Source of the DNA: Parcubacteria group bacterium
Lineage (GTDB): Bacteria > Patescibacteriota > Minisyncoccia > Moranbacterales > UBA2206
Length of the DNA: 64,000 bases
Assembly (NCBI GenBank): GCA_041674205.1
Contig: JBAYWF010000002.1
Coordinates: 46,940 to 110,939 of the forward strand
Direction: 5' to 3'
The notes beneath the pieces are model-generated. The model was not told the DNA's origin, searched no databases, and saw only the letters and a list, made by a program, of their open reading frames with translations. Position numbers and translations under genes: made by a program. Below, one piece after another: positions 9,573 through 64,000 of this stretch; position 1 is the first letter of the stretch, and the number at the start of each line of letters is the position of its first letter.

Positions 9573-9655
9573 TTAGCCTCGCCAAATAATCCTATCAAAA
9601 ATCACCGGTTCGGTCAACATAAAAAATGCTTACGTCCCACAAAGGACTAAAGTCA

Positions 9656-11068
9656 TCATAAAAAATCGATCGGCATAGCATCCCCGCTGAATTCTTTTTT
9701 GTCCAACACCTTTTTATTTTCAACGTCCAAAAGCAAAAAAACCGACTTCCATTCCCGTTCTCCACCCGCTTGGCGATGCGAATTGCCAAAGATGGCCAGA
9801 TAGCGTCCGTCCAACCAGAAGATATCAGACCAATCATCATAACCTTTAGGCAAGGCACCCACTTCCATCCTTTCCTTGGTCGCTACATCGATAGCTAGAA
9901 GTTCAGCGGAATCTTTTACCGTTTCGTTTATGAAAAATACCAGCCTGCCGCCCGGTGAAAAAAACGGAAGTGATTTCATGTCTTCTTTGTCCAATGCGTA
10001 AAATCCGCCTCCATCGATATTCGAAACAGCCAGAACGCTGCTAGGCGCTTCCGTAAATTCATTTTTGAAAGTGAAAACGGCTTTTTTGCCATCCGCAGAA
10101 ATTGCCGCTTCCTGAAAACCGCCTTTCTGCCTTCCGATTTTCCCTCCCAAATCAAATGGAACATCTGATTTTTCCGCCGCTACGATAAAAATTCCTGATC
10201 GGCCTCCATCTCCAGGCTCCGGATCGATAATCAGATTAGCATTGGGCGCCCAGCGCGCTTCCATCCCAGCCAGCGCGCTGCTTTCTGATCCTCCAATCGG
10301 AGCGGGATCACCCGCTAATTTGGTATCGATAACATATAGCCGGTGGGATCCGGCGGAAACTTCCACGAAGCTCAAAAACCTGCTGTCAAAAGACCATTGG
10401 GGTTTCACCAAATCAAAAACATAAGTATTTTTTTTCAGGACCTGTTCCGAAGCGAATCCTGGATCAGCGACCAGCGCTTCTTTTTTTCCAACCAGCAATC
10501 TATTCTCCCTGCTTGCCAAATCATACGAATATAATCCGTCGATTGCCACATATGCCAGCTTTTTTTTATCAGGCGATAAAACGACACTTGCGACTGGCAC
10601 ATCTGTCCCGTCAGACAATCCATCCAAACTCCGGTCAAATTCCAAAACTACTTCCTGATAATCCTTTTTGATATCTTCCCGACTGACAATCACATGATTG
10701 CCTTGTCCGGAAACCACCAGAAGCGCCCCATGGTAGGCGTTACCTTCTTCGGCAAAGCCCTCCAAATCCCAAATATTGCCATCCGCAAACTGAGCCGCCG
10801 CTTGATTCTCTTGACCAGCCATCACTTTTATGCCGCCGACTTTCCCAAAGTCATTCCCTTGCCATTGATACACGCCTGCGGTCGCTATGGCAACCGAGAT
10901 GGCTAAAGCTGCCACGACGGCTAATTCCCTGCGAACCTTGCGCCGATTATAACGGAAACTCAGCCCTTGCCTGATCTCGATTCTCTTATGTTTGATCATA
11001 TCCCATTCGGCGACCACTTTCTCCTCGATTGCCTGGCCAAACGAATGCGCATCAAATTTTTTTTCCAT
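9656..11068 (-). CDS. membrane-anchored TolB-like beta-propeller (PD40/WD40-like) protein
   Basis: short cytoplasmic N-term, one TM (LAVVAALAISVAIATAGVYQW), repeated propeller-like segments. Confidence 0.5.
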   Translation of the reverse strand: MEKKFDAHSFGQAIEEKVVAEWDMIKHKRIEIRQGLSFRYNRRKVRRELAVVAALAISVAIATAGVYQWQGNDFGKVGGIKVMAGQENQAAAQFADGNIWDLEGFAEEGNAYHGALLVVSGQGNHVIVSREDIKKDYQEVVLEFDRSLDGLSDGTDVPVASVVLSPDKKKLAYVAIDGLYSYDLASRENRLLVGKKEALVADPGFASEQVLKKNTYVFDLVKPQWSFDSRFLSFVEVSAGSHRLYVIDTKLAGDPAPIGGSESSALAGMEARWAPNANLIIDPEPGDGGRSGIFIVAAEKSDVPFDLGGKIGRQKGGFQEAAISADGKKAVFTFKNEFTEAPSSVLAVSNIDGGGFYALDKEDMKSLPFFSPGGRLVFFINETVKDSAELLAIDVATKERMEVGALPKGYDDWSDIFWLDGRYLAIFGNSHRQAGGEREWKSVFLLLDVENKKVLDKKEFSGDAMPIDFL

Positions 11069-22612: not shown

Positions 22613-23776
22613 ATGCGGATATTCGAATATGAAAATAAGGACACTCGACAAATCTTGGCTCTCGGTCCCGAATCGAACGGCAATTTTTCGTTTTTCTATC
22701 AGAACAAGCTTTATTTTTCCGAAGATTTCGGCGATCTATTGATTGATAAAAATTTCCATAATTACAAAACGGGCCTTTCTAAGTTCCTCAGCGCAAACAA
22801 CTTCCGTCCGGACATCATCCTCACCGACTCGCATCCGCTCTACAAAACTACCACCCTAGGCCGAAACCTGGCTAAAAAATATCCCGCCAGACTTATCCAG
22901 ATCCAGCACCACCTCGCCCACATTTTTTCCGCGATCGGCGATAAAACATTACTGACTAGAAACTATCAGCTAGAAAAGGCTTTAGGCATAACTTTGGACG
23001 GTACCGGCTATGGATCGGATGATAAAATTTGGGGAGGGGAAATTTTTAGAATTTCAAAATCCAAATTTCAAATTTTAAATCAAATCCCACAACTAAAATT
23101 ACAAATCGAAAGGATCGGACACCTGGAAAACCAAGTGATGATCGGGGGTGATTTGGCTATCAAGGAGCCTGCACGTATGTTGATCGGCATCTTATCAAAA
23201 TTCCTACCCAAGGAAAGCATCTATCCGCATATAAGAAAATATTATTCCGCCCAGGAATTTGAAGTTTTATACAACCAATCGCAACAGAAATTCAACTGCA
23301 TCGAAACATCCAGCACCGGAAGGATTTTGGACGCGGTTTCCGTGCTGCTCGGTTTTTGCGGCAATCAAAGAAATTACAAACATGAGCCGATCGAGTTATT
23401 GGAAAAAAATTCAGCAAAACCCTATTTGGATTTAAAACCCGAAATTAGCAAAGATTCCGACGGAAACCATATCCTCAGCACCACTTATTTATTTAATTAC
23501 ATACTTAAATACTTACATAAAAACAAAGATATATCTGACGGGGATAGGAACCGCTTGGCTGCCACCGCCCAACTCTACATCGCCCAAGGACTATACCGAA
23601 TAATTTCGGATGCAGATTTCGAAATCAGGGACTTCTATCTAGCCGGCGGCATCGCCAACAATAAAATAATTTCCGGATATCTGGACTCCAAGGGCGCCTA
23701 CGCCAGCCGGACGATTCCCCGCGGCGACGCCGGGCTTTCGTTCGGGCAGATCGTTTTCTATTTATCCGGCCACTAA
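22613..23776 (+). CDS. HypF-like carbamoyltransferase, C-terminal Kae1/YgjD-like domain only
   Basis: QHHLAHIF (HypF HHxAH), LDGTGYGSD, LAGGIANN; no acylphosphatase, Zn-finger or YrdC domains. Confidence 0.6.
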   Translation: MRIFEYENKDTRQILALGPESNGNFSFFYQNKLYFSEDFGDLLIDKNFHNYKTGLSKFLSANNFRPDIILTDSHPLYKTTTLGRNLAKKYPARLIQIQHHLAHIFSAIGDKTLLTRNYQLEKALGITLDGTGYGSDDKIWGGEIFRISKSKFQILNQIPQLKLQIERIGHLENQVMIGGDLAIKEPARMLIGILSKFLPKESIYPHIRKYYSAQEFEVLYNQSQQKFNCIETSSTGRILDAVSVLLGFCGNQRNYKHEPIELLEKNSAKPYLDLKPEISKDSDGNHILSTTYLFNYILKYLHKNKDISDGDRNRLAATAQLYIAQGLYRIISDADFEIRDFYLAGGIANNKIISGYLDSKGAYASRTIPRGDAGLSFGQIVFYLSGH

Positions 23777-52431: not shown

Positions 52432-54060
52432 CTAACACACTTTTTCCATTTTCAGTTTCTGTCTTTTGGCGATCACCAGCCTGATCTGTTCATAACTGAT
52501 CAGCTCCGGTAATTGCGCCTTGATGGCGCTCAAAAAATGCGCGCTGCCCGCCGCCGGCAAAGCTTGTAGGATTTGCCGTTCTTCCTCAGGAGTGACGAAT
52601 TTTCCAATTGCAAGTTCCCCACCAGCCAAATACCATAACACCAGATGATTGAAAATCGTGCTGACGCCCAGGCTGCGGATCTTGGCGATCTGCTCCGGCG
52701 CGTAGTCTTGTTTATAAAAATCGACGGTGACCAAGACGGTGTCGCTCAAATCGTCCTTGCCGCGCATAACGCGCGCCGCGCCGCGGGATGTTTTTCGGAT
52801 TTCCGTATTTTTCCAATTCAGGCACACATCGCAACCTTTGCAATTTTGCTGGTGCGATTCCAAATCCGGATCCTGGAAATATTCCAAGATTATCCGGCGC
52901 CGGCAGGACTTGGCCGTAGCATAGTTCAGGATGCCCTCCAGGCGGTTATATTTGATATCCAACACCCGGTTGGTTTCCTGCCAATCCTTGCCCTGCGCGA
53001 GCATATTCTGTTTGTCCAAACGGATGAAATATTTGTGGGTGGTCACATCCCGCTTGCTATGCAAAAGCACGCAATAGGAAAGCTCGCCGTCGCGTCCGGC
53101 GCGTCCGGCTTCCTGATAGTAGCCTTCCAGGCTCCCCGGCATCCCGGCGTGGATGACGAAGCGGATGTCGGCTTTGTCCACCCCCATCCCGAAAGCCACA
53201 GTGGCCACGATCACCTTGAAGCGGTTTTCCATAAAATCATTCTGGATTTTCTCGCGTTCTCCGGCTTTCATACCGGCATGATAGGCGCGCGCCGTGATGT
53301 CCTGGCTTTTCAGATATTTCGCGATGGCTTCCGTGTCTTTTCTGGAAATCGCATAGACGATGCCGGAACCCGCGCCTTTCAAAGATTTCACTATGCGCAA
53401 AACTTCCTCCAATCTTTGCGTCGGCTTCAAATCGCACTGCGCGAAGAAACGGATATTGGGCCGATCGAATCCGCGGATAAAAACTTTCGGGCTCCGCAGA
53501 TCCAAGCGCGCGATGATATCATCTTTGACTTCCGGCGTGGCCGTCGCCGTGAAAGCCGCCACGACCGGCCGTTTTTTTAAAGACTTGATATATTGGCCGA
53601 TGGCCAGATAGTCCGGCCGGAAATCATGCCCCCACTGAGAAACGCAATGCGCTTCGTCCACCGCGAACAAGGAAATTTCCAAATCGGAAAATATATTACG
53701 GAACTCCCCGCTTGCGAACCTTTCCGGGGCGATATACAAAATCTTGGTTTTCCCCGCCCGCAAATCCGCCAGGCGCCGCTGCGTTTCTTCCGGCGTAAGC
53801 GAACTGTTGATAAAAGTGGCCGGAATGCCCCGCGCCATCAGGCTGTCCACCTGGTCTTTCATAAGCGCGATGAGCGGTGAGATGACGATAGTGGTTTTCT
53901 CACCCAAAATGGCCGGCAATTGGTAGCACAAAGACTTGCCGCCTCCGGTCGGCATCAATGCCACCACATCCGTGCCTTGCAAAATGCTTTCGATGATTTC
54001 TTTCTGTCCCGCGCGGAACCGCGGAAAGTTGAAATATTTTTCCAGGTTTTTTTCCAACAC
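52432..54060 (-). CDS. recQ: ATP-dependent DNA helicase RecQ
   Basis: DEAH box VDEAHCVSQWGHDFRPDY, Zn-binding Cys cluster. Confidence 0.9.
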   Translation of the reverse strand: MLEKNLEKYFNFPRFRAGQKEIIESILQGTDVVALMPTGGGKSLCYQLPAILGEKTTIVISPLIALMKDQVDSLMARGIPATFINSSLTPEETQRRLADLRAGKTKILYIAPERFASGEFRNIFSDLEISLFAVDEAHCVSQWGHDFRPDYLAIGQYIKSLKKRPVVAAFTATATPEVKDDIIARLDLRSPKVFIRGFDRPNIRFFAQCDLKPTQRLEEVLRIVKSLKGAGSGIVYAISRKDTEAIAKYLKSQDITARAYHAGMKAGEREKIQNDFMENRFKVIVATVAFGMGVDKADIRFVIHAGMPGSLEGYYQEAGRAGRDGELSYCVLLHSKRDVTTHKYFIRLDKQNMLAQGKDWQETNRVLDIKYNRLEGILNYATAKSCRRRIILEYFQDPDLESHQQNCKGCDVCLNWKNTEIRKTSRGAARVMRGKDDLSDTVLVTVDFYKQDYAPEQIAKIRSLGVSTIFNHLVLWYLAGGELAIGKFVTPEEERQILQALPAAGSAHFLSAIKAQLPELISYEQIRLVIAKRQKLKMEKVC

Positions 54061-54240
54061 CTGTTTTGTATTTAGGACTTACGCGTTTGCCGCTTTATCC
54101 GGAGTGTTCCTAAAGCTAAGCTTTTGATAGGCTTCCAAGAAACAAACGTGTATGTCCTAATATTATTATTTTTTACCCGTAGCCTTATCTTACCACAAGC
54201 GGACTGTTTGCATCATGCAAACAGTCCGCATCCATTCCGA

Positions 54241-54492
54241 TTACTGCAAATATTGTTTCACTTCTTCCAAGGCGCCAGTAAAAGCCGGGAAATGGTCTTT
54301 AAAAATCAAAAGGCGGTTCACGACTTTTTCACCGGTCGGTTTTTTATAGGACTCGGCGACAGTCAGATAATTACTGCCGTTGCTCGCCTTCTTCACATCG
54401 AAGAAATAGGTTTTGCCTCCCGCCTTCACCATCTGCGCGAAGACTTTGTCCTGGACCGGCGCGCCTTGCGGCGCATTTTGTGATTGTTGCAT
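54241..54492 (-). CDS. PUR-alpha-like (DUF3276-type) nucleic-acid-binding protein
   Basis: GGKTYFFDVKKASNGSNYLTVAES. Confidence 0.5.
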   Translation of the reverse strand: MQQSQNAPQGAPVQDKVFAQMVKAGGKTYFFDVKKASNGSNYLTVAESYKKPTGEKVVNRLLIFKDHFPAFTGALEEVKQYLQ

Positions 54493-54647
54493 TTTTGTTT
54501 TCCGTACCCGCGCCTCAAGCGCGGGATATTAAATTATTAGTCGGAAGGCTGCAGCGCTTCCTGATGATATTTTATCACTGCCGTTATCACTGTCAAGTTT
54601 TCGGCTGTGGATAACTTATTGCAGCGGTCCGACCCCTCCAAAAAACT

Positions 54648-55157
54648 TCACTTCAACGCTTCAGCCAGCTTGTCCAGAGACTGGTTCCAGCCCATATCCA
54701 TATCCTTCAAATCCTGTTCGTCGAAACGGCTCGTGTCCGGATAGCGCAAAGTGAATTTAGTCTTATTACCCATCTCTTCAAGCATAGTTTCCACTGTTGT
54801 CTCATATGGCACATCACTGCCCATGCCATAATAGGCCGGTGTCACCGGATTGCCTTTCTCATCGGAAAAATAGTCCGTCACCACGATTTTCTCCGGTGCT
54901 TTGACCTCACGGAAAATACCGGCGCTCCAAAAATCATGCGCTTCACCGCCTGGCACGACCACTCCGTGCATACAGTAGAGATATTTCCCGCCTTCGCGCA
55001 GATCAATCTCGATGTGCGGGGCCGTGAAATCTTTCGGACCCCACCATTTTTTCACCATCTCAGGAGTCGTCCAAGCCTCCCAAACTTTTGCGCGCGGAGC
55101 GTCAAAAACGCGTGTGAATTCCAAACCTTTTTCATTTTTTCGCATCGTATTATCCAT
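54648..55157 (-). CDS. SRPBCC / AHSA1-like domain protein
   Basis: VFDAPRAKVWEAWTTPEMVKKWWGP. Confidence 0.65.
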   Translation of the reverse strand: MDNTMRKNEKGLEFTRVFDAPRAKVWEAWTTPEMVKKWWGPKDFTAPHIEIDLREGGKYLYCMHGVVVPGGEAHDFWSAGIFREVKAPEKIVVTDYFSDEKGNPVTPAYYGMGSDVPYETTVETMLEEMGNKTKFTLRYPDTSRFDEQDLKDMDMGWNQSLDKLAEALK

Positions 55158-55217
55158 ATGTTTTCACCTCCTTTCCATATGACTAATACAGCCACTATGA
55201 GCCCGGGCTTTCAAATA

Positions 55218-55571
55218 CTATCGGATGGCAAAGCCAGCCACGAATACCGCCAGCCACACCAGGCCGCTCACTATCGTATAAGCCGGCGGCACCCGTTTTC
55301 CCGATCCTTCACGATAGTTGATCGAGGACCAGACGGCTTTCCCGCCCATGAGCGCCAGCGCGACCAAGCCAGCAACCGAATGGAAATCCAAGGCGAAACC
55401 CGCGGTCATAAGTGACATAAGCGCCGTCCCGGTCAGGTCAAAAACGAATCCCCACCAAAAAAGGGCCAGGGTCGCGGACGAGACCGCTTTCCGCGAAAAT
55501 TCCTGGAAGACGCTTGTGGCATAAAGGACCAAGGCGAGGACGACTGCGATGATGGCGGCTGGAAGCAACAT
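55218..55571 (-). CDS. small multi-TM membrane protein
   Basis: 117 aa, 4 predicted TM. Confidence 0.45.
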   Translation of the reverse strand: MLLPAAIIAVVLALVLYATSVFQEFSRKAVSSATLALFWWGFVFDLTGTALMSLMTAGFALDFHSVAGLVALALMGGKAVWSSINYREGSGKRVPPAYTIVSGLVWLAVFVAGFAIR

Positions 55572-55609
55572 ATTATTTTTTTCTTAAATTATTAATTATT
55601 TCCCGATTT

Positions 55610-56623
55610 TCAATTCTTGGCCAGCAAGTTGGTGATGAGCGCGATCATGGTTTCTTTTTCTTTCGGATGGCTTTCCGCCACGAGCAAGGCCAGCGCCGTC
55701 AAAGCGTTGTCATTGATTTTCTTTTCTCCATTGGCGCCGTAGAGATAATTATTGCGGTCCAAAAAATAGATAAACAGGAAAGCTCCCATACGTTTGTTGC
55801 CATCGGAAAACGGATGATCCTTGATTACTAGGTACAGCAAGTGCGCCGCCTTGCTTTCCAAATCAGCATACAATTCCTTGCCGTCGAAAGTTTGGTATAG
55901 GTTTTTGATGACCGATTCGAACGCGCCACCCCTTTCATTGCCGAAAATATCACCCGCTTCTTTCTTAGCCAGCAATTCCCTTTTGACTTCCGTCACGATT
56001 TTTTGGCAATCTTCATACCGCAAAACGAATTTGGCCTTGCCTGCGCGCGCCTTCTTCAAACTGCTCTTATCATATTGCTCCAAGAGGGTCAAAGTCTTGG
56101 CGTAGTCCGCCAACAGATCCATAATTTCAACCTCTTGCCCTTTCAACGTTTTCGCGTGGACTTTTTCCCGCAAGAAGGAAATGGTTTTTTGCAGTTTTTC
56201 AAAATTTTCCTTTTCCTGCAAAAGCCTTTTCTGATTGATGGTGTAGCCTTTTAACAAATGCTCCCGCAATACATTGGTCGCCCAGATGCGGAATTGGGTG
56301 GCGCGAGTCGAATTGACCCGATAACCGATAGAAATAACAGCATCTAGATTATAAAATTGGATTTTATAGACTTTACCATCAGAGGCAGTATGTTCCAAAA
56401 TGGAACTAACTGAACTCTTCTTCAGCTCGCCGGATTTAAAGACATTTTGCAAATGTTTTGTAATTGCAGGTCTCTGCGTACCAAAAAGCATTGCAATTTG
56501 ATCCTGCGTAAGCCAAACTGTTTCTTTCTCGAATTTAATCTCCAATTCAACCTCCCCTGCCTTGGATTTGTAAATTATGACTTCACCTTCTTGTGGAACC
56601 TTTTTTAAGTTTTGTTTTACCAT
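55610..56623 (-). CDS. RhuM-like N-terminal domain fused to Fic (AMPylase-type) domain
   Basis: C-terminal HPFSDGNKRMG matches Fic motif HPFx[DE]GNGR; N-terminal KIQFYNLDAVISIGYRVNS RhuM-like. Confidence 0.7.
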   Translation of the reverse strand: MVKQNLKKVPQEGEVIIYKSKAGEVELEIKFEKETVWLTQDQIAMLFGTQRPAITKHLQNVFKSGELKKSSVSSILEHTASDGKVYKIQFYNLDAVISIGYRVNSTRATQFRIWATNVLREHLLKGYTINQKRLLQEKENFEKLQKTISFLREKVHAKTLKGQEVEIMDLLADYAKTLTLLEQYDKSSLKKARAGKAKFVLRYEDCQKIVTEVKRELLAKKEAGDIFGNERGGAFESVIKNLYQTFDGKELYADLESKAAHLLYLVIKDHPFSDGNKRMGAFLFIYFLDRNNYLYGANGEKKINDNALTALALLVAESHPKEKETMIALITNLLAKN

Positions 56624-56715
56624 ATTTTTTAACTTATTTGATTATAGTGATATAGTATCATTATAATCGAATCCGTCAACCCTTCACGACCTTGTTTATT
56701 GCAACTATCAAAAAA

Positions 56716-56747
56716 CGCATGGACATTCTCACATTCTCGAGAATGTG
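56716..56747. promoter_or_regulatory. 32-bp near-perfect palindrome upstream of Fic gene (GAATGT half-sites, centred on CTCGAG)
   Basis: ACATTCTCACATTCTCGAGAATGTGAGAATAT. Confidence 0.6.
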
Positions 56748-56756
56748 AGAATATGT

Positions 56757-57380
56757 TCATTGCCCATCATCATCCAGGAAATTCCCGAGCTCAGAAATGT
56801 TCAAAAAATCTATGCCGGCGGCCTGGGCCGCGCCGCTGTCGGCCCGGCTATCGCCGATAAGCAGGTATCGCGATTTCGGAAAGCTCCCGTCAAAAATCAA
56901 GGAAAAACCGTCCGCCCGCGGTTTGATATACCGGACATCGTTGCGCGTAACGATCTTTGCGAAAAATTTCGCCCAACCCAGCTCCTCCAAAATCAGCTGG
57001 ATCGTCCGCCGGTCATTGGATGTCCATAAATATAATTCGGCATACTTCCGGGATAATTCGAGCAGGGGCGCCGCGAGCGGCGACAAGTCGTAGCCGTAAA
57101 AAAAATCTTTTTCAATCCCGAAATTCATTTCATTCATCCTCTCGCTGGCCGCATCGCCACCTTTTTCGATGCAAAGATTTATCTTCTCGGAATAATTCAA
57201 ATCAGGGCTCTCGCTGAAATCCAACCCGAACTCGGAAAAAATGCCATCCAGCTCCTCGCACCAAGGCTTCCAATCGACCAACAACGTGCAGAGCGTCTTG
57301 TCGAAATCGAAAATAATATGCTTGATGTCTTTTTCTTGGATGTAGTTTTCGAACTGTTCTTTTTTCATGTTTTTTTGCAA
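56757..57380 (-). CDS. HAD-superfamily hydrolase
   Basis: IIFDFDKTL (DxDxT motif). Confidence 0.7.
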   Translation of the reverse strand: MQKNMKKEQFENYIQEKDIKHIIFDFDKTLCTLLVDWKPWCEELDGIFSEFGLDFSESPDLNYSEKINLCIEKGGDAASERMNEMNFGIEKDFFYGYDLSPLAAPLLELSRKYAELYLWTSNDRRTIQLILEELGWAKFFAKIVTRNDVRYIKPRADGFSLIFDGSFPKSRYLLIGDSRADSGAAQAAGIDFLNISELGNFLDDDGQ

Positions 57381-57397
57381 ATAATCAAACCCAAAAT

Positions 57398-57440
57398 GGG
57401 AAATTTAATACGTATAAAGGTAAGTGTTAAAATCATTCAC
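57398..57440. promoter_or_regulatory. motif B copy (immediately upstream of HAD gene)
   Basis: GGGAAATTTAATACGTATAAAGGTAAGTGTTAAAATCATTCAC. Confidence 0.55.
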
Positions 57441-57656
57441 TGATCTCGATTTAAGTATAGCACCTTAAAATATATGGCCAAATAAAAATACTACTGATGA
57501 AAACCACTGCCGGTGTCAGCCTGCCGCATACGCGAAACATCAAAGGGGAAATAAAAAAAGGCCGCTTCCTGGTTAGGGGCGACCTTCGTGAAAAATTATT
57601 CGAGTTTATTTATATATGCTTGTTTGTACGTGGCATTCTTTTTCTTCGGGAGATGA

Positions 57657-58283
57657 TTAGGTGGCAGGCTGCATACCTTTAAGCTTATTTATCCCTCTGC
57701 GTTCAGCCTCGATTATTTGAATGAAAATAGGATAATAACCTTTCTTATCATCGATCGGGTCGCCATAAATATTATACGCCATATTCCCCCGCCTTTTTGT
57801 TTCCCACAAGAAACCATCGAAACTCTCTTTGCCAGCATTGCAAAGAAACATTTCCCCGGACTTAAGTTCCGGATGCCGGTCATTTGAAAAGGGTTTTTCA
57901 TGGATGATATTGATTTCTCCGCCTTTTTCATATGCCCTTAAATCCTGACTTAATCCGATTGGTTCCGATTTGTAATCCTTGGGACCATTCTTGAAAAAAG
58001 CCATCCCGACGCAACCCACCAAAGTCAATGAATTCGTCCGGGCAAAAGCGAGAAAATCTTCAAAAACTTCTCTCCATGTATTACTGAAAGGCGAAACACC
58101 TTCATTAACAGAGATGGCCATGTATCTTGTCATACTATGGACTTCATTTTTAATCCGGAAAATTGCATGATCAGGAGATGATGGTGGAGATTCCACCAGA
58201 GCATGCGGGAAAAAACTAAAGCTGGAAAGTTGCAAAACTGGCGTTTCTCGCTCTCCTTTGGTTGGCTCTCTAAGGATGGCCAT
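57657..58283 (-). CDS. hypothetical protein (start possibly internal at MTRYMAIS)
   Basis: ORF only; no motif recognised. Confidence 0.35.
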   Translation of the reverse strand: MAILREPTKGERETPVLQLSSFSFFPHALVESPPSSPDHAIFRIKNEVHSMTRYMAISVNEGVSPFSNTWREVFEDFLAFARTNSLTLVGCVGMAFFKNGPKDYKSEPIGLSQDLRAYEKGGEINIIHEKPFSNDRHPELKSGEMFLCNAGKESFDGFLWETKRRGNMAYNIYGDPIDDKKGYYPIFIQIIEAERRGINKLKGMQPAT

Positions 58284-58489
58284 GGCTTTTCCTCCACTGT
58301 TGATTTTTTATCTATGAATCACATTGTAATTGTTTGTAAAAGTAATATGGCATCCTACTAATAAAACGCGATTTTGTCAATAAAAAAATGCCTTCACAAC
58401 GTGCCTATTATCCCGCCGTGAAGGAAAAATTTATTTCCGAAGGTCCAACCTTCGAAGCCAATGACACGTAGCCGACTCCTCAATTAAAA

Positions 58490-58726
58490 TCATTCTATCC
58501 TCCGCCAATGCCGGTGTTCGACATAGACGATCCGCCACCAGGTTTGGCCCAGAAAATATCCGCCGATGAGGCCGGCAAGGAAAAACGCAGCACTGGCATA
58601 TCCCGGCAAGCCGTCCACCGCCCCGCTATTCAAATAGCGGATATCCAGCAAGCCGAACGCAATCACCGCCAACAGTACTCCCAAAAACATCGTGAGGATG
58701 ATATAGATTGTTTTTTTGATTTGCAT
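58490..58726 (-). CDS. small 2-TM membrane protein
   Basis: 78 aa, two hydrophobic helices. Confidence 0.4.
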   Translation of the reverse strand: MQIKKTIYIILTMFLGVLLAVIAFGLLDIRYLNSGAVDGLPGYASAAFFLAGLIGGYFLGQTWWRIVYVEHRHWRRIE

Positions 58727-58740
58727 TTGGTTTTGATTTG

Positions 58741-58786
58741 AAAAAATTTAATACGTATTAAGGTAAGTATTTAATCATGTATATCC
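58741..58786. promoter_or_regulatory. motif B copy (upstream of small membrane protein gene); contains perfect 14-bp palindrome TTAATACGTATTAA
   Basis: AAAAAATTTAATACGTATTAAGGTAAGTATTTAATCATG. Confidence 0.55.
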
Positions 58787-59364
58787 ACAACAACGAACTC
58801 CGTTTCTTTCACCGCATACACCGGCAATTTTTCCGCGTAGCCTTCCAGCATTTCCAATTTATCCCTTCCACTCGTTGCCGCATATTCCCCGGTCGACAAA
58901 TAGTGCGCGATCATTTTCGCATGCAAAAAATCCAGGCCTGCTAGGATTTTATCATGATCTTGGTCATAATAGTATTTCATAAACACCAAAGCGCCGGCTG
59001 AAGAACCTGCCACGACCTTGCTCTCGAATAATCTTTGAAGATCAGGAACTTTTTCCAACTGGGTCTGCAGCATCGGCGTCGATCCTCCGCGGATATAGAC
59101 GACATCGCACCATTCCACCTGTTTGGCGAATTCCCCCGGATCGGCGCTGGCGATTTGGAATCCGATTTCGCGGCCATCCGCGCGTGCCTCAAATTTATTT
59201 TCATGCTCCCCTGCCAATCCAGCCCACCGTTCCTTTTCCACGGCGAAATACGTCAACAAAATCTTGGCCGGTCCGGAAACCGAGCCCAGGATTTCTTTAT
59301 AGTATTTATCGTTGCTTTCACAAGGCACGCCCGCCATGCCGCCGTGGAGGAAATATTTGGTCAT
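58771..59364 (-). CDS. peptidase S51 / class I glutamine-amidotransferase-like protein
   Basis: YIRGGSTPML...VVAGSSAGALVF nucleophile elbow. Confidence 0.55.
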   Translation of the reverse strand: MTKYFLHGGMAGVPCESNDKYYKEILGSVSGPAKILLTYFAVEKERWAGLAGEHENKFEARADGREIGFQIASADPGEFAKQVEWCDVVYIRGGSTPMLQTQLEKVPDLQRLFESKVVAGSSAGALVFMKYYYDQDHDKILAGLDFLHAKMIAHYLSTGEYAATSGRDKLEMLEGYAEKLPVYAVKETEFVVVDIHD

Positions 59365-59376
59365 AGGTTTTGGTTG

Positions 59377-59406
59377 GAATATTTAATATACGTTAATACA
59401 ATCACC
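59377..59406. promoter_or_regulatory. motif B-related half copy (upstream of S51 gene, next to motif A)
   Basis: GAATATTTAATATACGTTAATACAATCACC. Confidence 0.4.
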
Positions 59407-59421
59407 TTGAATTATTTTGTT

Positions 59422-59446
59422 GGCTTTCTGCAGAATGTGGGAATGT
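59422..59446. promoter_or_regulatory. motif A copy 1 (upstream of S51 peptidase gene)
   Basis: GGCTTTCTGCAGAATGTGGGAATGT. Confidence 0.6.
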
Positions 59447-59458
59447 TGTTTTTTATAT

Positions 59459-60037
59459 CTATTCCCTTCCGATCTTGTCCAACAATCCATCAAAGGGGAA
59501 ATTTTCAGTATAGATAATCGGGTTTTCAGCTTTAGTCGGACGTTCGAAATTAATAGCATCTTCTGTCAGCCAGCCTGAGGGAACATCATGCCTGTCGCGA
59601 GTTATTTTGTTGCGCGCCTTCCTTTCCTTCAACACCTCAACGGGAATATCCAGATATACTAAAGAAAAATCGACACCCATATCTTTCGCTACGGCACGCA
59701 GATCTTCACGCTGGCGGAAAAGCAAGCAGTTGTCGTCAAAAACCACCGAATTGCCGATGAGCAATTGGTTCTTGGCTCCCTGCACGGCAATCGGCCAGAG
59801 ATTGTTCCACAGCGAATCATCATCGTCGTCCGGCGTGCTTTCAAGGGCTAATATTTTTTCAATGGCAAAATAGATGCGATCGCGCCCGACTATTTCCGCC
59901 CCAAAAGACTCGGACAATTTCTTGGAAAGTGTCGTCTTTCCGGAAAAAGCTTCCCCGCAAAGAATAATGAGACGCTGTTTTTCCTTTTTCATATCATTTT
60001 TAATGTTAATTGATTGTGGATTATCCCGCACTGACAT
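59459..60037 (-). CDS. P-loop kinase (AAA_33 / zeta-toxin-like fold)
   Basis: LIILCGEAFSGKTTLSKKL Walker A. Confidence 0.55.
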   Translation of the reverse strand: MSVRDNPQSINIKNDMKKEKQRLIILCGEAFSGKTTLSKKLSESFGAEIVGRDRIYFAIEKILALESTPDDDDDSLWNNLWPIAVQGAKNQLLIGNSVVFDDNCLLFRQREDLRAVAKDMGVDFSLVYLDIPVEVLKERKARNKITRDRHDVPSGWLTEDAINFERPTKAENPIIYTENFPFDGLLDKIGRE

Positions 60038-60067
60038 TCTGTCTTTCTGCAGAATGTGAGAATGTCG
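60031..60067. promoter_or_regulatory. motif A copy 2 (upstream of P-loop kinase gene)
   Basis: CTGACATTCTGTCTTTCTGCAGAATGTGAGAATGTCG. Confidence 0.6.
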
Positions 60068-60072
60068 TTTTA

Positions 60073-60372
60073 CTAGAATGTTCTTATGAATTTCAGGAAG
60101 AGCTTGCCATAGGGCGAAAGTGAATGCCGGATTCCCCTACCTTGGCGGGTCTTATTGATTAGTCCGGATTGCACCAGTTTTTTAGTATGTTCGGAAATGG
60201 TTTTGATATTGCCTCGCATGATCGCGCAGATGCTATCCAGCGTGATTCCGTCATGTTCAGCCACTATAAACAAAATCTCTATCCTTCGGTGGTTAGCTAC
60301 GCCTTTCAAGTGCCGTTCCATCTGCCGGGGAGTTTTTTGCTTCTTTTCAATTTTTCTCTTTTTGGCTAACAT
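60073..60372 (-). CDS. ArsR/SmtB-family winged-helix transcriptional regulator
   Basis: HRRIEILFIVAEHDGITLDSICAIMRGNIKTISEHTKKLVQSGLI HTH. Confidence 0.7.
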   Translation of the reverse strand: MLAKKRKIEKKQKTPRQMERHLKGVANHRRIEILFIVAEHDGITLDSICAIMRGNIKTISEHTKKLVQSGLINKTRQGRGIRHSLSPYGKLFLKFIRTF

Positions 60373-60445
60373 AATTTAATTTTATAACCGCCAACACACT
60401 ATCATATTTCAATAATATCACAATCCTACCATCCCACAACATCCT

Positions 60446-60472
60446 GGCTTTCTGCAGAATGTCGGAATGTCG
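60446..60472. promoter_or_regulatory. motif A copy 3 (upstream of ArsR gene itself)
   Basis: GGCTTTCTGCAGAATGTCGGAATGTCG. Confidence 0.6.
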
Positions 60473-60627
60473 CGGTGGCATATGTGTGATATGTGCGGGC
60501 TATTTCAGATTGAAGGCTTGGTGCGGGATGGATTGCTCGAGAGCGGCAAGGTCGGATTGGGTGGATTTTTGGCGAGCCTGCAAGCGGGCGATTTTTTCGC
60601 GATTTACATCCAGCCGCATGATGATCC

Positions 60628-61095
60628 CTAATTCAAAATCCAAATCGAATAATTAAGATAGCCGGCGAAGCTGACCCAAAGAATATATGGCGCCAGAAGC
60701 CAGGCGGCTGTCTTGGAAATTTTGGCGAAGGCGATGATTGTGGCAAGGATGGCCAGCCAAAGAAAAGTCATCTCTAAAAGCGCGCCGCCTGGGGAATGGA
60801 GGCCGAAAAAGACAATCGACCAAAGCGCGTTCAAAACCATCTGGATCCCGAAAGTCCAAAAAGCCAAGCGTTTGTTTTTTCCGCCTTCGTCCGTCCAGAC
60901 AAGATAGAGCGCGTAGCCCATCAAAAGAAACAGCGCCGTCCAGACCGGACCGAATACCCACGCCGGCGGATTGAGAGCGGGCTTCACCAGCACCGGATAC
61001 CAATTTTTCACCGAACCGATCGTAAAAAAACTCCCCAATCCTCCCGCCAATTGCGGGATAAGAAGTGAAATGATGAGTTTGTATATTTTTTTCAT
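60628..61095 (-). CDS. tspO: TspO/MBR (translocator protein) family membrane protein
   Basis: 5 TM, Trp-rich, WYPVLVKPALNPPAWVFGPVWT. Confidence 0.75.
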   Translation of the reverse strand: MKKIYKLIISLLIPQLAGGLGSFFTIGSVKNWYPVLVKPALNPPAWVFGPVWTALFLLMGYALYLVWTDEGGKNKRLAFWTFGIQMVLNALWSIVFFGLHSPGGALLEMTFLWLAILATIIAFAKISKTAAWLLAPYILWVSFAGYLNYSIWILN

Positions 61096-61206
61096 ATATT
61101 TATTTTATTTTTTAATTGAGCAATAAAGGTACCCGACCCATTTTAATCATGGTTTTGTGACATGATTGGATGCGCTAATGCTTATTTTTTGCTTTTATTA
61201 TATCAT

Positions 61207-61244
61207 GCTGACATTCTGGCTTTCTGCAGAATGTGGGAATATCG
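61207..61244. promoter_or_regulatory. motif A copy 4 (upstream of tspO)
   Basis: GCTGACATTCTGGCTTTCTGCAGAATGTGGGAATATCG. Confidence 0.6.
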
Positions 61245-61288
61245 TTGTTGCTGTTTTTTTAAAAATAAACCTTCAGGACTAGCTTGAA

Positions 61289-61768
61289 TTATTTTACAAA
61301 ATTTTTGATTGCACTAATAAACTTTCCCGGTTCTGCCTCAATAGCCTTTTTCAATTCATCCCTGGAAAACCATCTGATCGCTTCCACCTCTTTCGGTTCA
61401 ATTTTAAATTCATTCAATCCTCTATCTAAAACTATTTTGTACCATTGGCAGAAATAATTATAGGTTCGGCTAACCCTGACCTTTTGAGCCTTCTCAAATT
61501 CAATTCCGCTCAAACCGATTTCCTCCTCTGCTTCTTTCACGATGTTGCTGTCATATGTTTCTCCCTCATCATTTGTTCCGGAAACGGCCGAACCCCATTT
61601 GCCAGGACTATGGCTCTTATTGAAAGATCTTTGAGCCAAAAGAACCTCGCCCTTGCTATTCTCAATCCACAAAGCACTGACGCGATAGATGTCATCGCGA
61701 ATCACTGAATCTCTTTCCTTGCTTCCGATAATTTCATCCTGCTCATTAACTATGATTATTTTTGCCAT
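61289..61768 (-). CDS. Nudix hydrolase
   Basis: Nudix box GTNDEGETYDSNIVKEAEEEIGL. Confidence 0.7.
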   Translation of the reverse strand: MAKIIIVNEQDEIIGSKERDSVIRDDIYRVSALWIENSKGEVLLAQRSFNKSHSPGKWGSAVSGTNDEGETYDSNIVKEAEEEIGLSGIEFEKAQKVRVSRTYNYFCQWYKIVLDRGLNEFKIEPKEVEAIRWFSRDELKKAIEAEPGKFISAIKNFVK

Positions 61769-61778
61769 AAAAAAAATT

Positions 61779-61828
61779 AAATTACTGAATTCCCTCCATA
61801 GGCGAGTAAAAAATTCATGAATTGTAGT
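61779..61828. promoter_or_regulatory. motif C copy split by ~20-nt insertion (upstream of Nudix gene)
   Basis: AAATTACTGAATT-ccctccataggcgagtaaaaa-ATTCATGAATT. Confidence 0.45.
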
Positions 61829-61878
61829 CGAGGACCGTCCTTTTTAAGCATGAATTTTTTCCCGTATCGGGCTTGGTT

Positions 61879-61916
61879 AAAAATTTAATACTTATCAAGG
61901 TAAGTATTAAATTACG
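61879..61916. promoter_or_regulatory. motif B copy (between NERD and Nudix genes)
   Basis: AAAAATTTAATACTTATCAAGGTAAGTATTAAATTACG. Confidence 0.5.
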
Positions 61917-61919
61917 TAA

Positions 61920-62714
61920 TTATATAACTGTCATTTTTTTATTTTCTTCACCTGATCTGATATACCGAGAAATTTGAAAAGATATTTCATTAACATCATC
62001 CCCACTAAATATTTCCTTTTCATTCGCTAGATATTTCGGTAAAGCTTTTGGCTCTAAAACCCACACGTCATTATTTTTCTTACTTGCCTTAATGAACCAT
62101 CCTGGATACACAACCACCGCCTTAACTGAAACATCTCTGCCTGTTATTTTGAGAATAAGTTTTTGAAGCCAATCCCGTTGCGCCTTTGCTTGGATAATTG
62201 GTTTTTCTGATATAGTCCCTCCGTTCATTCGAATACCTTTACTATCGTAATCAATAATTGCCTGTCCCTTCCCAGGCTTGCTCCATGTTTTAGTTTCAAT
62301 CGTAAACGCTCCAGCTGGCCCGATGATAATGTGATCTAAGTTAAATCCATCGCCAATCAGATCATGAAAAACAAAATATCCCTTGGTTCTCAGCGATTCT
62401 AAAAATTGACCAACTTCTCTTTCACCATCCCTGCCCAATTTTCTATTACTTATTTCCTTTTTTGCATACATATATTTTGCAATAGCATATCCAGTGACAA
62501 CGATTGCAACGAACGTCCATACTTCTGGCAAGGGTGGCTTGTCGTATGTTTTTTCATACCATTGAAGGAGCGCTACGACAATGGTAAATATAGCCAACAA
62601 AGCTGGGGAAATAATGCTATCATAAGCAATATCTCGAATTTCTTCGGTTAGTGATTGACCTGGATAACGCAAGGGCTGAGCTTTTAGTGGCGACTTCTTT
62701 TTTATATTGGCCAT
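61920..62714 (-). CDS. NERD (nuclease-related) domain protein with N-terminal TM helices
   Basis: GRDGEREVGQFL...YFVFHDL...DHIIIGPAGAFTIETK. Confidence 0.6.
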   Translation of the reverse strand: MANIKKKSPLKAQPLRYPGQSLTEEIRDIAYDSIISPALLAIFTIVVALLQWYEKTYDKPPLPEVWTFVAIVVTGYAIAKYMYAKKEISNRKLGRDGEREVGQFLESLRTKGYFVFHDLIGDGFNLDHIIIGPAGAFTIETKTWSKPGKGQAIIDYDSKGIRMNGGTISEKPIIQAKAQRDWLQKLILKITGRDVSVKAVVVYPGWFIKASKKNNDVWVLEPKALPKYLANEKEIFSGDDVNEISFQISRYIRSGEENKKMTVI

Positions 62715-62724
62715 TTTTTTATTT

Positions 62725-62754
62725 TAATTACTGAATTAATTCATGAATTATGGT
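62725..62754. promoter_or_regulatory. motif C copy (immediately upstream of NERD gene)
   Basis: TTAATTACTGAATTAATTCATGAATTATGG; overlapping palindromes TGAATTAATTCA and ATTCATGAAT. Confidence 0.55.
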
Positions 62755-62816
62755 CGGAAATGATTAATTAATGATTGCTCATTATTTTGCCTTAAAAGGT
62801 GCCTGACCCCATATAT

Positions 62817-63455
62817 CTATTTCAATTTGATGTAAATTTCAGGATCACCCTTGATCAGATTTTTGATTTCTTCTATCCTATTTTGCAAGAAATAATCGAA
62901 CTCTTCCGGAATGACGTTCGGAAAATCATAATCATGTGAAACGACCAGGACAGTTTCAGCATCCTCTTTCAGTTTTCTCACTAAGGGCTTCAAATAGCTG
63001 AACGTGTCTATTATGACATCTCTCGCCTCATCGATATCATAGCCATCAGTCTCGCTGAATCTTTTTGCGATTTCAGCCAAGTTTTCATCATTGATCAATG
63101 CATACATCTGAATAAAAGAATCCTTAGTTGGTATATATTCATCAATTTGCTCCAATTTGAAATAGCCGACCAATGTACCTAATTGACTCATATATTGCTC
63201 ATCTCCCATAGCTGAATTTATCAAGGCTGATACCGAACCCATTTTTAAATAAATATTTTCCAGCCCAGCTAAAAAATCATCACCCCCATATCGGTAGGCG
63301 TCTTTTAATTCTGAAAAATGCTCAAAAAATTTATTTTCTTCCGATTCACCAGCCTTCTCCACGGAATCGGCTTTCTTCACAAAATCTAAAAACTCAGCCA
63401 AAGTTTTTTCAGCTTCATCCTTGTTGAACGCAAAAATTTCTGTTATAACACTCAT
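62817..63455 (-). CDS. acidic hypothetical protein
   Basis: 212 aa, D/E-rich, no motif recognised. Confidence 0.4.
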   Translation of the reverse strand: MSVITEIFAFNKDEAEKTLAEFLDFVKKADSVEKAGESEENKFFEHFSELKDAYRYGGDDFLAGLENIYLKMGSVSALINSAMGDEQYMSQLGTLVGYFKLEQIDEYIPTKDSFIQMYALINDENLAEIAKRFSETDGYDIDEARDVIIDTFSYLKPLVRKLKEDAETVLVVSHDYDFPNVIPEEFDYFLQNRIEEIKNLIKGDPEIYIKLK

Positions 63456-63462
63456 TTTTTTA

Positions 63463-63505
63463 GGTAAGTAATTAATTACTGAATTAATTCATGAATTAAA
63501 ATTAT
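63463..63505. promoter_or_regulatory. motif B tail + motif C copy (upstream of acidic 212-aa gene)
   Basis: AGGTAAGTAATTAATTACTGAATTAATTCATGAATTAAAATTA. Confidence 0.55.
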
Positions 63506-63592
63506 TTCTGAAACACAAACAAATGTTCATGCATAATTAGGAGGAAATTACTTTCCTTGGAGCGATTCACCCAAAAGCCTGTGGCTTTGCAA

Positions 63593-63796
63593 TTAAAATC
63601 CTTCTGGCTCATCAATTTTTCCTTTGCAATTTATACAAAAGAATTCTTGTGATTCAACACTTTCATCTCCATGAAAATCATTCCACTGCCTCGTTTCTAG
63701 ATCGAAAGAATAATAACGAGTTTCTTTTTGAACAATGCCAATAACTTCGTTAGTATTCCTGCAATGCTTACATGTATATTTTTTTAATTTTTCCAT
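63593..63796 (-). CDS. small zinc-ribbon protein
   Basis: CKHC...CINC paired CxxC. Confidence 0.45.
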   Translation of the reverse strand: MEKLKKYTCKHCRNTNEVIGIVQKETRYYSFDLETRQWNDFHGDESVESQEFFCINCKGKIDEPEGF

Positions 63797-63797
63797 A

Positions 63798-63983
63798 TCA
63801 TTTTTCTTTTTTATCTTTCAGGTTAAAATGATAAGTTTTTTCATCTTTCAATTCAACTCCAATAACTTCATCAAACTCCATATCTTTGAGCCAAGCACTT
63901 TCTTCTTTGAAATTATCAAATGCTTCCTCCGCAACATTGCCTTTCCCCCATCCTAAAACTTGGCAATTTTCAACATCTGACAT
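63798..63983 (-). CDS. small hypothetical protein
   Basis: 61 aa ORF adjacent to Zn-ribbon ORF. Confidence 0.3.
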   Translation of the reverse strand: MSDVENCQVLGWGKGNVAEEAFDNFKEESAWLKDMEFDEVIGVELKDEKTYHFNLKDKKEK

Positions 63984-64000
63984 GTCACTTTCTGAATCAG

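Follow-up and report, generated by a model that had tools for sequence, protein, structure and literature searches.

Motif B is represented in the window (the whole 64-kb stretch of DNA that was analysed) by three copies of a 25-mer, ACTTACCTTAATACGTATTAAATTT, at 57401-57425 (one mismatch), 58744-58768 (no mismatch) and 61881-61905 (two mismatches), all on the minus strand, which is the orientation of the genes; none is expected in shuffled sequence. These are the copies that a preliminary description had listed at 57398, 58741 and 61879. The 'tail only' copy that it placed at 63463 is also there, as ACTTACCT at 63462-63469; this tail occurs four times in the 64-kb window (0.5 expected), always on the minus strand and within the last 7 kb. 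The perfect 14-bp palindrome ascribed to the 58741 copy is located at 58748-58761 and had been taken to define the motif, yet the 14-mer alone is not enriched (six found in the window at up to three mismatches, 3.6 expected). The 14-bp palindrome is absent from copy 3, which keeps a near-perfect 28-bp dyad, TTTAATACTTAC-CTTG-ATAAGTATTAAA. The conserved feature is instead a 12-bp unit, with box consensus TTTAATACTTAC and variant TTTAATACGTAT. When such units are scored in bits with a weight matrix built from the motif-B family, the locus reads as follows.

56757-57380, minus strand: gene of a HAD-family hydrolase (HAD_2, E = 1.8e-14), TTG start at 57380; candidate regulated gene
57404-57431, minus strand: array 1, TTTAACACTTAC at 57420-57431, 4-bp spacer, inverted ATACGTATTAAA at 57404-57415 (scores 12.7, 15.4)
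57454-57481, minus strand: candidate σ70-like promoter TTGGCC-N16-TATACT (with TG), 9/12 matches, upstream of array 1
58490-58726, minus strand: ORF, called as a gene, of a 78-aa predicted membrane protein; candidate regulated gene
58747-58774, minus strand: array 2 (the best copy), TTAAATACTTAC at 58763-58774, 4-bp spacer, inverted ATACGTATTAAA at 58747-58758, containing the perfect palindrome (weight-matrix scores 17.0, 12.7, 15.4)
61289-61768, minus strand: gene of a NUDIX hydrolase (NUDIX, E = 4.5e-17), the nearest gene downstream of array 3
61884-61921, minus strand: array 3, upstream of the NUDIX gene, TTTAATACTTAC at 61900-61911, spacer CTTG, inverted ATAAGTATTAAA at 61884-61895 (weight-matrix scores 18.3, 16.6)
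62817-63455, minus strand: gene of a 212-aa protein, downstream of the motif-C/tail array
63464-63499, minus strand: motif-C-type array of three in-phase 12-bp units, TTAATTCATGAA / TTAATTCAGTAA / TTAATTACTTAC

Array 2 can also be parsed with a second direct unit, CTTAATACGTAT, 12 bp after TTAAATACTTAC; the latter overlaps the stop codon of the S51 gene. In array 3 the unit TTTAATACTTAC is preceded by an in-phase variant (61910-61921), which contains a AATTACGTAATT palindrome and overlaps the stop codon of the NERD gene. Motif-C units occupy the proximal upstream region of the NUDIX gene, and the tail-only copy is the third unit of the motif-C-type array at 63464-63499 (scores 11.5), which ends 8 nt from the ATG of the 212-aa gene; the TTAATTCATGAA-TTTAATACTTAC fusion seen there recurs in locus L016. 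Family searches returned no match for the 78-aa membrane protein or for the 212-aa product. A placement 15-20 nt before start codons, as originally proposed, holds for two copies only, those of the 78-aa gene (17 nt) and of the HAD gene (20 nt to the TTG; 32 nt to an alternative ATG at 57368, which gives 203 aa). The gap is 112 nt for the NUDIX gene and 6 nt for the 212-aa gene (tail only).

A degenerate copy had also been proposed at 59377-59400 (GTATTAACGTATATTAAAT in gene orientation), ahead of the S51 gene. No 12-bp unit of 4 bits or more was found there on either strand with the family weight matrix, the sequence resembles motif B solely when indels are allowed, and it is not accepted here as a family member. 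Combinatorial control of the S51 gene together with motif A is accordingly unsupported, since the claimed co-occurrence rests on this copy.

Clusters of at least two units number 25 in ~330 kb of related DNA, as against one in shuffles, and are nearly all intergenic; the 64-kb window itself contains three arrays, lying within 5 kb of one another, and one isolated unit inside a coding region. Units are grouped two to four per array, either as direct repeats exactly 12 bp apart or head to head with a 4-bp spacer (an offset of 16 bp), and this geometry holds across loci. Some arrays are purely direct (L038, L041, L025) and others are inverted pairs (L023, L033 and copy 3 of the window). Conservation of unit spacing together with variable orientation suits a protein that reads the boxes. 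In all likelihood motif B is not a promoter, and not a simple palindrome either, but an array of 12-bp boxes resembling the binding site of an AbrB-type regulator. Pattern scans of genome and metagenome collections for motif B found their matches in Candidatus Moraniibacteriota/Moranbacteria contigs, and arrays related to it are present in Moranbacteria/Parcubacteria contigs.

The probable cognate regulator, a 55-aa protein of the AbrB/MazE/SpoVT fold, has its gene on the same contig but ~3.7 kb past the end of the window, and so out of view of the preliminary description. That gene lies at 5947-6114 in the coordinates of L022, the label of the locus on this contig (window position = 73797 - L022 position; the HAD promoter candidate, for example, is L022 16316-16343). 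In a comparison of 14 distinct AbrB-like genes and genomes, with 20-kb neighbourhoods inspected, the array is found at the predicted promoter or transcription start of the AbrB-like gene itself, and this position is conserved across genomes. In 13 of the 14, an array of two to four units directly precedes the gene, placed between its -10 box and its ATG; in L029, which belongs to these 13, an IS element is inserted between array and ATG. The remaining gene is preceded by a single variant unit. The -10 boxes are TATAAT, TAAAAT, TAGGAT or TAGAAT, with TTGnnn 17 nt upstream. No other constantly adjacent gene was found in the neighbourhoods of the 14 genomes: the genes downstream (methyltransferases, Zip transporter, serine hydrolase, HAD, Ham1, peptidase M19) differ in nearly every genome. 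For most AbrB-like genes no second array was found within 10 kb on either side, so that a putative regulon is documented mainly in this contig, L016, L018 and L021.

Assignment of the 55-aa protein to its family is based on sequence profile and on predicted structure. It matches Pfam PF04014 with 28.5 bits (cutoff 24.7; E = 1.5e-6), and its homologues are named AbrB/MazE/SpoVT by NCBI. The AlphaFold2 model (pLDDT 74) has the strand-strand-helix-strand-strand topology of the fold (strands 11-13 and 19-21, helix 25-31, strands 39-44 and 47-52). Top PDB matches in Foldseek are the DNA-bound AbrB N-domain (2k1n, the best structural match), MazE, SpoVT and VapB (including 1mvf, 1ub4, 2mrn and 3zvk), with probability 0.90-0.99 and TM-score 0.5-0.67; the shortness of the domain keeps the E-values weak.

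Box and protein change together. All 11 proteins with RK(I/V)(T/I)(R/K) are accompanied by ATAC(T/G)TA(C/T) boxes, and all three with RKL(L/I)(K/R) have three to four GTATATAC boxes instead, so that RKL(L/I) in place of RK(I/V)(T/I) goes with a different unit, GTATATACTT. The residues that differ between these subtypes directly follow an invariant basic pair, R9-K10; the site, in other words, changes with the putative DNA-reading residues (11/11 versus 3/3). From the fold, the R9-K10 pair and this covariation we infer an interdigitated homodimer that binds DNA. The covariation may go back to a single evolutionary event in one clade. The protein changes are conservative (I/V to L, T/I to L/I), so protein and box could simply have drifted together along the phylogeny.

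What is observed, then, is how the repeat is built, that it is conserved between genomes, where it lies with respect to promoters and start codons, that it is constantly linked with the AbrB-like gene, and that protein and box change jointly. The explanation that we favor, and hold to be reasonably probable, is that motif B is the operator array of an autoregulated AbrB-like repressor, analogous to MraZ boxes; of the two functions initially suggested, promoter proper or second operator, the evidence favors the latter. Binding would most likely be cooperative, by dimers or higher oligomers of the 55-aa protein, to boxes located at the transcription start and shortly after it. From that position the protein would repress its own gene (autoregulation), as well as a few further genes that have come to carry these boxes. 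Extra regulon sites in the window would be those at the HAD hydrolase gene, at the 78-aa membrane-protein gene and in the region ahead of the NUDIX gene. With transcription from the promoter candidate at 57454-57481, array 1 would span roughly +16 to +43 in the HAD transcript. We infer from sequence the binding itself, repression as the sign of the effect, and the choice of responding genes in the window. If true, this would provide a rare computable regulator-and-target pair for Moranbacteria-like (CPR) bacteria, which nobody can culture, and in which the tiny AbrB-type regulator looks widely conserved. Counting against an operator are the arrays at 58747 and 61884, which directly follow the preceding stop codon and upstream of which no convincing promoter was detected. 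In L005/L016 a terminator-like hairpin comes after one array, with a separate canonical promoter behind it, implying that at least some copies are outside operator position. The AT-rich boxes also resemble -10/-35 hexamers (TTAATA-N17-TAAAAT, 9/12, within the L022 array).

The arrays might be the operator of a different DNA-binding protein encoded elsewhere, with the AbrB-like gene merely the most conserved target. Inspection of 20-kb neighbourhoods leaves room for such a distant regulator, loose sequence specificity is often ascribed to AbrB-type proteins (PMC4022651), and the protein changes that discriminate the subtypes are conservative. We consider this unlikely: no other regulator gene co-occurs with the arrays (that of a MarR/ArsR-like winged-helix protein tracks motif A, in three genomes), box type covaries with the subtype of the AbrB-like protein, and boxes between promoter and own ATG are the rule for AbrB-superfamily autoregulation (MraZ, PMC12957436; MazE, PMC4333400; VapB, PMC3326315).

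It is rather improbable that motif B is a promoter or part of one (an AT-rich -35/-10 pair or an extended -10/initiator, read by the housekeeping or an alternative σ factor and yielding very short or leaderless transcripts), even though the units contain -10-like hexamers (TTTAAT, TAAAAT). In the AbrB copies of L022 and L004, TTAATA-N17-TAAAAT is followed after 6 nt by ATG; ATGACA-N17-TTTAAT can be read by eye at copy 3 of the window; at the 104-aa, L016 and 212-aa genes a single unit runs directly into TATAAA, ATAAAA or TAAAAA, after which comes a start codon; and no other promoter is detectable at copies 2 and 3. However, at least 10 AbrB loci have a better, separate σ70-like promoter (TTGnnn-N17-TAnnAT, 8-10/12 matches, including a perfect TATAAT) 0-20 nt upstream of the array. 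A candidate also precedes the HAD copy, and the 'promoter proper' is disfavored on both counts. Housekeeping genes of the window use canonical TTGACA-N17-TAGAAT-type promoters without boxes. No fixed -35/-10 geometry is conserved, since the array-to-ATG distance (-2 to ~30 nt), the number of boxes and their orientation all vary, and a concerted change of box with the AbrB-like protein variant is unexpected for a σ-factor site.

Action as RNA, in the form of a 5' UTR or intergenic hairpin or an AU-rich element for translation initiation, stability or termination, is very unlikely. The upstream promoters would put the arrays in the transcript, copy 3 and the L005 copy are at gene 3' ends, most of these genes have no Shine-Dalgarno sequence, and inverted arrays fold strongly (copy 3, -13.0 kcal/mol, z = -4.5; L023, -13.4 kcal/mol). 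Direct-repeat arrays, in contrast, do not fold (L038, 0 kcal/mol; L041, -2.7 kcal/mol), copies 1 and 2 fold no better than shuffles (z = -0.2 and -0.8), and units in both orientations give different RNA sequences. An Rfam search with motif B found no family match to a structured cis-regulatory RNA. Variable orientation and inconsistent folding argue for a DNA site.

Least credible of all is a role as recombination sites, or as scars left by a mobile or cassette-like element (REP/MITE, attC-like or Xer-type) shuffling the accessory genes of the island: the copies do sit where one gene gives way to the next in a variable accessory island that separates fusA from tuf, the L007 deletion relative to L008 begins directly after an array, a 33-nt promoter-plus-unit block is duplicated in L022 and an IS element has inserted beside the array in L029, but three arrays in 64 kb is a low copy number, viral contigs gave no matches, and the position between -10 box and ATG of one regulator gene is kept in 13 genomes with unrelated neighbours. 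With three clustered arrays and one isolated unit in ~74 kb of genome covered, motif B is not a dispersed repeat of the REP/MITE type. Nor is it an integron attC or Xer-type site: no recombinase or integrase was called within 20 kb (L022), and reading of the sequence found neither attC core sites (GTTRRRY) nor a Xer-like 11-6-11 structure.

As the putative operator of an autoregulated AbrB-like repressor, motif B can be set beside several known systems. MraZ, of the AbrB superfamily, represses its own operon by cooperative binding to three to four tandem boxes of fixed period, which separate the promoter from its own start codon; transcription starts inside box 1 (PMC12957436). The two to four boxes upstream of the AbrB-like gene likewise begin 0-20 nt past its -10 box. 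The MraZ protein carries two UPF0040 domains on each chain, assembles into octamer-to-dodecamer rings, heads the dcw cluster and reads GTG(G/T) boxes that are direct only with a 10-bp period, whereas the present protein is a single 55-aa domain with variable downstream genes, and its boxes have a 12-bp period and are also head to head.

The best structural match is to the DNA-bound N-domain of Bacillus AbrB, a transition-state regulator that is an autoregulated repressor with several targets. AbrB is not known to have a clear consensus site; the predicted site here, unlike that of AbrB, is a sharply defined 12-bp unit. AbrB also has a C-terminal multimerisation domain (PMC4022651), and the present protein corresponds to the N-domain alone. 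AbrB-type type II antitoxins (MazE, Rickettsia felis VapB2, PrlF) bind palindromes in the promoters of their own genes; they share the fold and small size of the present protein, and inverted repeats placed autoregulatorily over the promoter or transcription start are common to both. Unlike them, it has no toxin partner and no C-terminal toxin-binding tail, and has putative extra sites at unrelated genes. It is not part of a type II toxin-antitoxin module (MazEF, VapBC, Phd-Doc), the genes downstream being unrelated in nearly every genome; Fic-domain genes are nearby in only 2/14 genomes and not in an operon with the AbrB-like gene, and a match to the doc_partner model scored 19.5 bits, below the cutoff of 55.9.

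The controller (C) proteins of restriction-modification systems are helix-turn-helix proteins with a characteristic C-box dyad. The likeness to these is that in four of the 14 genomes (L022, L004, L018, L045) the AbrB-like gene and its array stand directly at the head of a restriction-modification/defence operon; its product is no C protein, having an AbrB-like rather than a helix-turn-helix fold, and 10 of the 14 genomes are without an adjoining restriction-modification system. The Omega repressor of plasmid pSM19035 is a small dimeric protein that reads short repeat units, direct or inverted, in heptad arrays upstream of its own gene and of a few other genes; it has a ribbon-helix-helix fold and 7-bp units, is plasmid-borne and is also a centromere-binding protein. 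Fold and unit length differ, but short units in direct or inverted arrays at the own gene and a few others are common to Omega and to motif B.

Motif B (in gene orientation, ACTTACCTTAATACGTATTAAATTT) is found three times in the window, each time with at most two mismatches, in a region (56.7-64 kb) in which every gene lies on the minus strand; shuffled sequence yields none. The three copies are:

57401-57425, before a minus-strand HAD gene (copy 1)
58744-58768, before the minus-strand gene of a 78-aa membrane protein (copy 2)
61881-61905, upstream of a minus-strand NUDIX gene (copy 3)

Its tail, ACTTACCT, occurs four times, always on the minus strand, against 0.5 occurrences expected, and the 14-bp palindrome reported at copy 2 is indeed free of mismatches (58748-58761). 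The 14-mer by itself is not an enriched element once mismatches are allowed, and the placement 15-20 nt before start codons given in the preliminary description is true of two copies only, because the gaps are 17, 20 (or 32), 112 and 6 nt.

Public genomes and metagenomes were scanned with the pattern ACTTACYTTNATANGTATTAAA. The matches obtained are in contigs of Candidatus Moraniibacteriota/Moranbacteria and in a few low-GC contigs (loci L003, L006, L009-L011, L013, L015 and L020 of those compared), where they lie in unrelated contexts and are taken as chance. What is conserved across the matches is the 12-bp unit TTTAATACTTAC, which also has variants (for example TTTAATACGTAT). Units in direct orientation repeat at exactly 12 bp, and inverted ones have an offset of 16 bp. 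(Locus L019, for example, has a perfect dyad of four units, L005 and L023 have two units head-to-head with a 4-bp spacer, and in L038, L041, L025 and L004 three or four units run in the same direction.) In the window, motif B is laid out as a unit, a 4-bp spacer and an inverted unit, and its 14-bp palindrome arises from the self-complementary core of the variant unit, ATACGTAT. In copy 3 the palindrome is lost and a 28-bp dyad is kept at 11/12; the palindrome is rejected as the unit of function, since it is absent from this copy and from many related arrays that retain the 12-bp unit geometry. A weight matrix derived from the compared units finds 25 clusters of two or more units in about 330 kb, nearly all of them intergenic, against one in shuffled sequence, and returns from the 64-kb window the three arrays and no other. 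The supposed degenerate copy at 59377, before the S51 peptidase gene, fails this unit model, and the combinatorial control of that gene with motif A that had been built on it is dropped. One unit standing alone, TTAAATACTTAC, scores high (17 bits, window 23505-23516); it lies within the coding region of a plus-strand gene (22613-23776) and is probably a chance match.

All-against-all comparison of open reading frames revealed a 55-aa AbrB/MazE/SpoVT-like protein recurring among the motif-bearing loci. Its homologues form at least 327 clusters at 90% identity (65-100% identity; Moranbacteria, Parcubacteria and Patescibacteria), and the NCBI record of an identical protein comes from a Parcubacteria-group MAG. 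The protein scores above the Pfam PF04014 threshold. A PDB sequence search returned nothing significant, so that a fold search was needed; the AlphaFold2 model (strand-strand-helix-strand-strand, pLDDT 74) best matches DNA-bound AbrB-N, MazE, SpoVT and VapB. In 13 of 14 distinct genomes an array of 2-4 units lies between a sigma70-like promoter (-35 TTGnnn, spacer of about 17 nt, -10 TATAAT, TAAAAT, TAGGAT or TAGAAT) and the ATG of the AbrB-like gene, starting 0-20 nt past the -10 box and often abutting the ATG. No toxin partner was found beside the gene in the 14 genomes, and its neighbors are otherwise unrelated. One of the 13, L029, carries an IS element (8790-10001; a transposase_mut-type gene with inverted ends) inserted exactly at the junction of array and ATG, uncoupling the AbrB-like gene from its own promoter and operator. 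At L045 only one variant unit lies upstream of the gene. A 21-nt block, GGCAAACGCGTAAGTCCTAAA, which contains the unit-like GTAAGTCCTAAA, is identical in L045 (113-135), where it precedes the divergent AbrB-like gene, and in the window (54071-54095), an unrelated contig, where it lies about 14 nt before the RecQ start codon (RecQ, 52432-54060).

Boxes and protein vary together. All eleven proteins with RK(I/V)(T/I)(R/K)xGK are accompanied by canonical boxes, and the three with RKL(L/I)(K/R)IGK (L036, L042 and L044) instead by (A/G)GTATATACTT boxes, of which each array has three or four, again with a 12-bp period. The GTATATACTT core occurs at a background of 0.18 per kb. The differing residues come right after an invariant R9-K10 pair. 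Joint change of all boxes in each array is as expected if one trans-acting reader had changed, and the covariation may represent a single evolutionary event. For the regulator and its boxes this gives a specificity switch that can be tested, with residues 11-12 on the protein side and TTTAATACTTAC or GTATATACTT on the DNA side.

A promoter role, less likely than that of an operator, is possible for copies 2 and 3, at which no other promoter is detectable: being AT-rich, the boxes can themselves be read as weak promoters. The AbrB loci speak differently, their arrays being preceded by a separate promoter, and the HAD copy has an upstream candidate of its own (TTGGCC-N16-TATACT), which would place the array at about +16 to +43. 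The window copies have no consistent -35 element that could be found upstream; promoters of housekeeping genes in the window follow the canonical form (as in the textbook TTGACA-N17-TAGAAT, with AAGGAGG, of the S10 operon at 50426). As RNA, arrays of inverted units would fold strongly (-13 kcal/mol), but those of direct units show no folding (0 to -2.7 kcal/mol), and for window copies 1 and 2 folding does not exceed that of shuffled sequence. The varying orientation of the boxes makes conservation at the level of RNA sequence or structure unlikely, and no Rfam family matches motif B. An integron or cassette reading is dropped, no recombinase having been found in L022, the locus spanning the window end, and no core sites in the motif, and phage origin likewise, two array patterns having no exact match in IMG/VR.

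Motif B is a real, conserved cis-element; the most probable role for it is that of an operator array for a small AbrB-type regulator, itself autoregulated, in Moranbacteria-like CPR bacteria. The 55-aa protein would bind the phased boxes cooperatively and, once bound, would presumably repress transcription initiation or early elongation at its own gene and at a few genes with copies of the box. Candidate targets are HAD, the 78-aa membrane protein and the NUDIX-upstream region in the window, and elsewhere a VKOR-like/GerM-like pair, a 104-aa membrane protein and RhuM. The model for such cooperative binding and repression is MraZ, a member of the AbrB superfamily whose 3-4 boxes have a 10-bp period, transcription starting in box 1 (PMC12957436); AbrB-type antitoxins provide a second precedent (PMC4333400, PMC3326315). 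The proposed mechanism is of a known kind and this instance appears undescribed, no account of the protein or its 12-bp site having been found in the literature. A regulator/operator pair would account for the upstream element shared by several unrelated accessory genes of the window.

The locus was extended past the window end (L001, L022) along ERZ27247358 k141_1331007, a 100-kb metagenome contig that includes the window. The motif-bearing genes lie within an accessory island some 19 kb long, with fusA on one side and RecQ/RadC/tuf-S10 on the other, whose contents are, in order:

DUF2238, Bro-N, Fic, a Lar-like zinc ribbon, then the 55-aa AbrB/MazE-like gene
two methyltransferases, a DpnI-like nuclease, NERD, NUDIX, TspO and a MarR/ArsR-like winged-helix gene
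an AAA_33 kinase, the S51 peptidase, the 78-aa membrane protein, HAD and RhuM/Fic

The AbrB-like gene is immediately preceded by another full copy of motif B, and a 104-aa membrane-protein gene by a single unit; no second AbrB-like paralogue was found in the roughly 74 kb of this genome that were covered. A 33-nt block (-10 box TAAAAT plus first unit GGCGTAAAATGGAAGCAGGATTTAATACTTACT) is identical upstream of the 104-aa membrane-protein gene (L022 2268-2310) and of the AbrB-like gene (L022 5880-5922), which suggests promoter duplication. fusA and tuf are neighbors in many bacteria; here the accessory/defense island (L022 1-20204, that is, window 53593-64000 plus about 9.8 kb past its end) separates fusA (EF-G) from tuf. 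A single operon past the window end (L022 6182-9680) encodes an N6/N4 methyltransferase, a 286-aa protein of unknown function, a Dam-class (D12) methyltransferase and a DpnI-like methyl-directed nuclease, the last two an odd pairing if both recognize GATC.

Shine-Dalgarno sequences are absent from most window genes, and A-rich leaders of about 6-10 nt on several island genes suggest short or leaderless mRNAs.

Two other repeated elements were noted:

Window 56731-56760, 59425-59450, 60045-60070, 60450-60475 and 61222-61247, motif A
L016 2307-2322 and 2705, motif A
L021 9830-9845 and 10890, motif A
Window 63464-63499, 62726-62749 and 61780-61823, motif C (AATTCATGAATT, AATTCAGTAATT) and AATTACGTAATT
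L016 607-640, motif C and AATTACGTAATT
L019 3901-3924, motif C and AATTACGTAATT

Motif A (core ACATTCTnnAGAA; present either as one arm or as a perfect dyad) is always upstream of a 99-108-aa MarR/ArsR-like winged-helix gene in three genomes, and is also present at other gene boundaries within the island. Motif A probably serves the winged-helix protein as an operator for its own gene and has no dependence on motif B; since the protein (window 60073-60372) tracks motif A in the three genomes, it is rejected as the motif B binder. Motif C and AATTACGTAATT are 12-bp units whose phase matches that of motif B units, and in two genomes they are fused to motif B units. The copy at 63463 described as tail only does contain the tail, and is identified as the third unit of a motif C-type array. 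These units may be variant boxes of the motif B system or sites of a related reader.

A wider proposal, which we consider improbable, is that AbrB-like gene, promoter and array together form a portable "regulated entry point" heading variable accessory/defense operons in Moranbacteria-like CPR genomes (acting, in roughly one case in four, as a non-helix-turn-helix analogue of restriction-modification controller proteins), with box copies and in-phase motif C/AATTACGTAATT units wiring the whole island into one minimal regulon. If true, this would be a minimal regulon in organisms with very few transcription factors. CPR/Patescibacteria are uncultured, with tiny genomes and few regulators, and to our knowledge almost nothing is known of their gene control. 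Because the protein is conserved and its 12-bp box sharply defined, a regulator and operator recognizable by sequence should allow regulon prediction across hundreds of metagenome-assembled genomes, and may offer a repressible promoter part for future genetics of these bacteria.

One contig among those compared (L008, CAZFCX010000024.1), labeled "uncultured Bdellovibrionales", is probably mis-binned, being syntenic with Candidatus Moraniibacteriota L007 and near-identical in its flanks. The two (L007 6950-7060, L008 1-1420) differ by deletion of the VKOR-like and GerM-like genes, which starts directly behind the array; the final codons of the GerM-like gene are still present.
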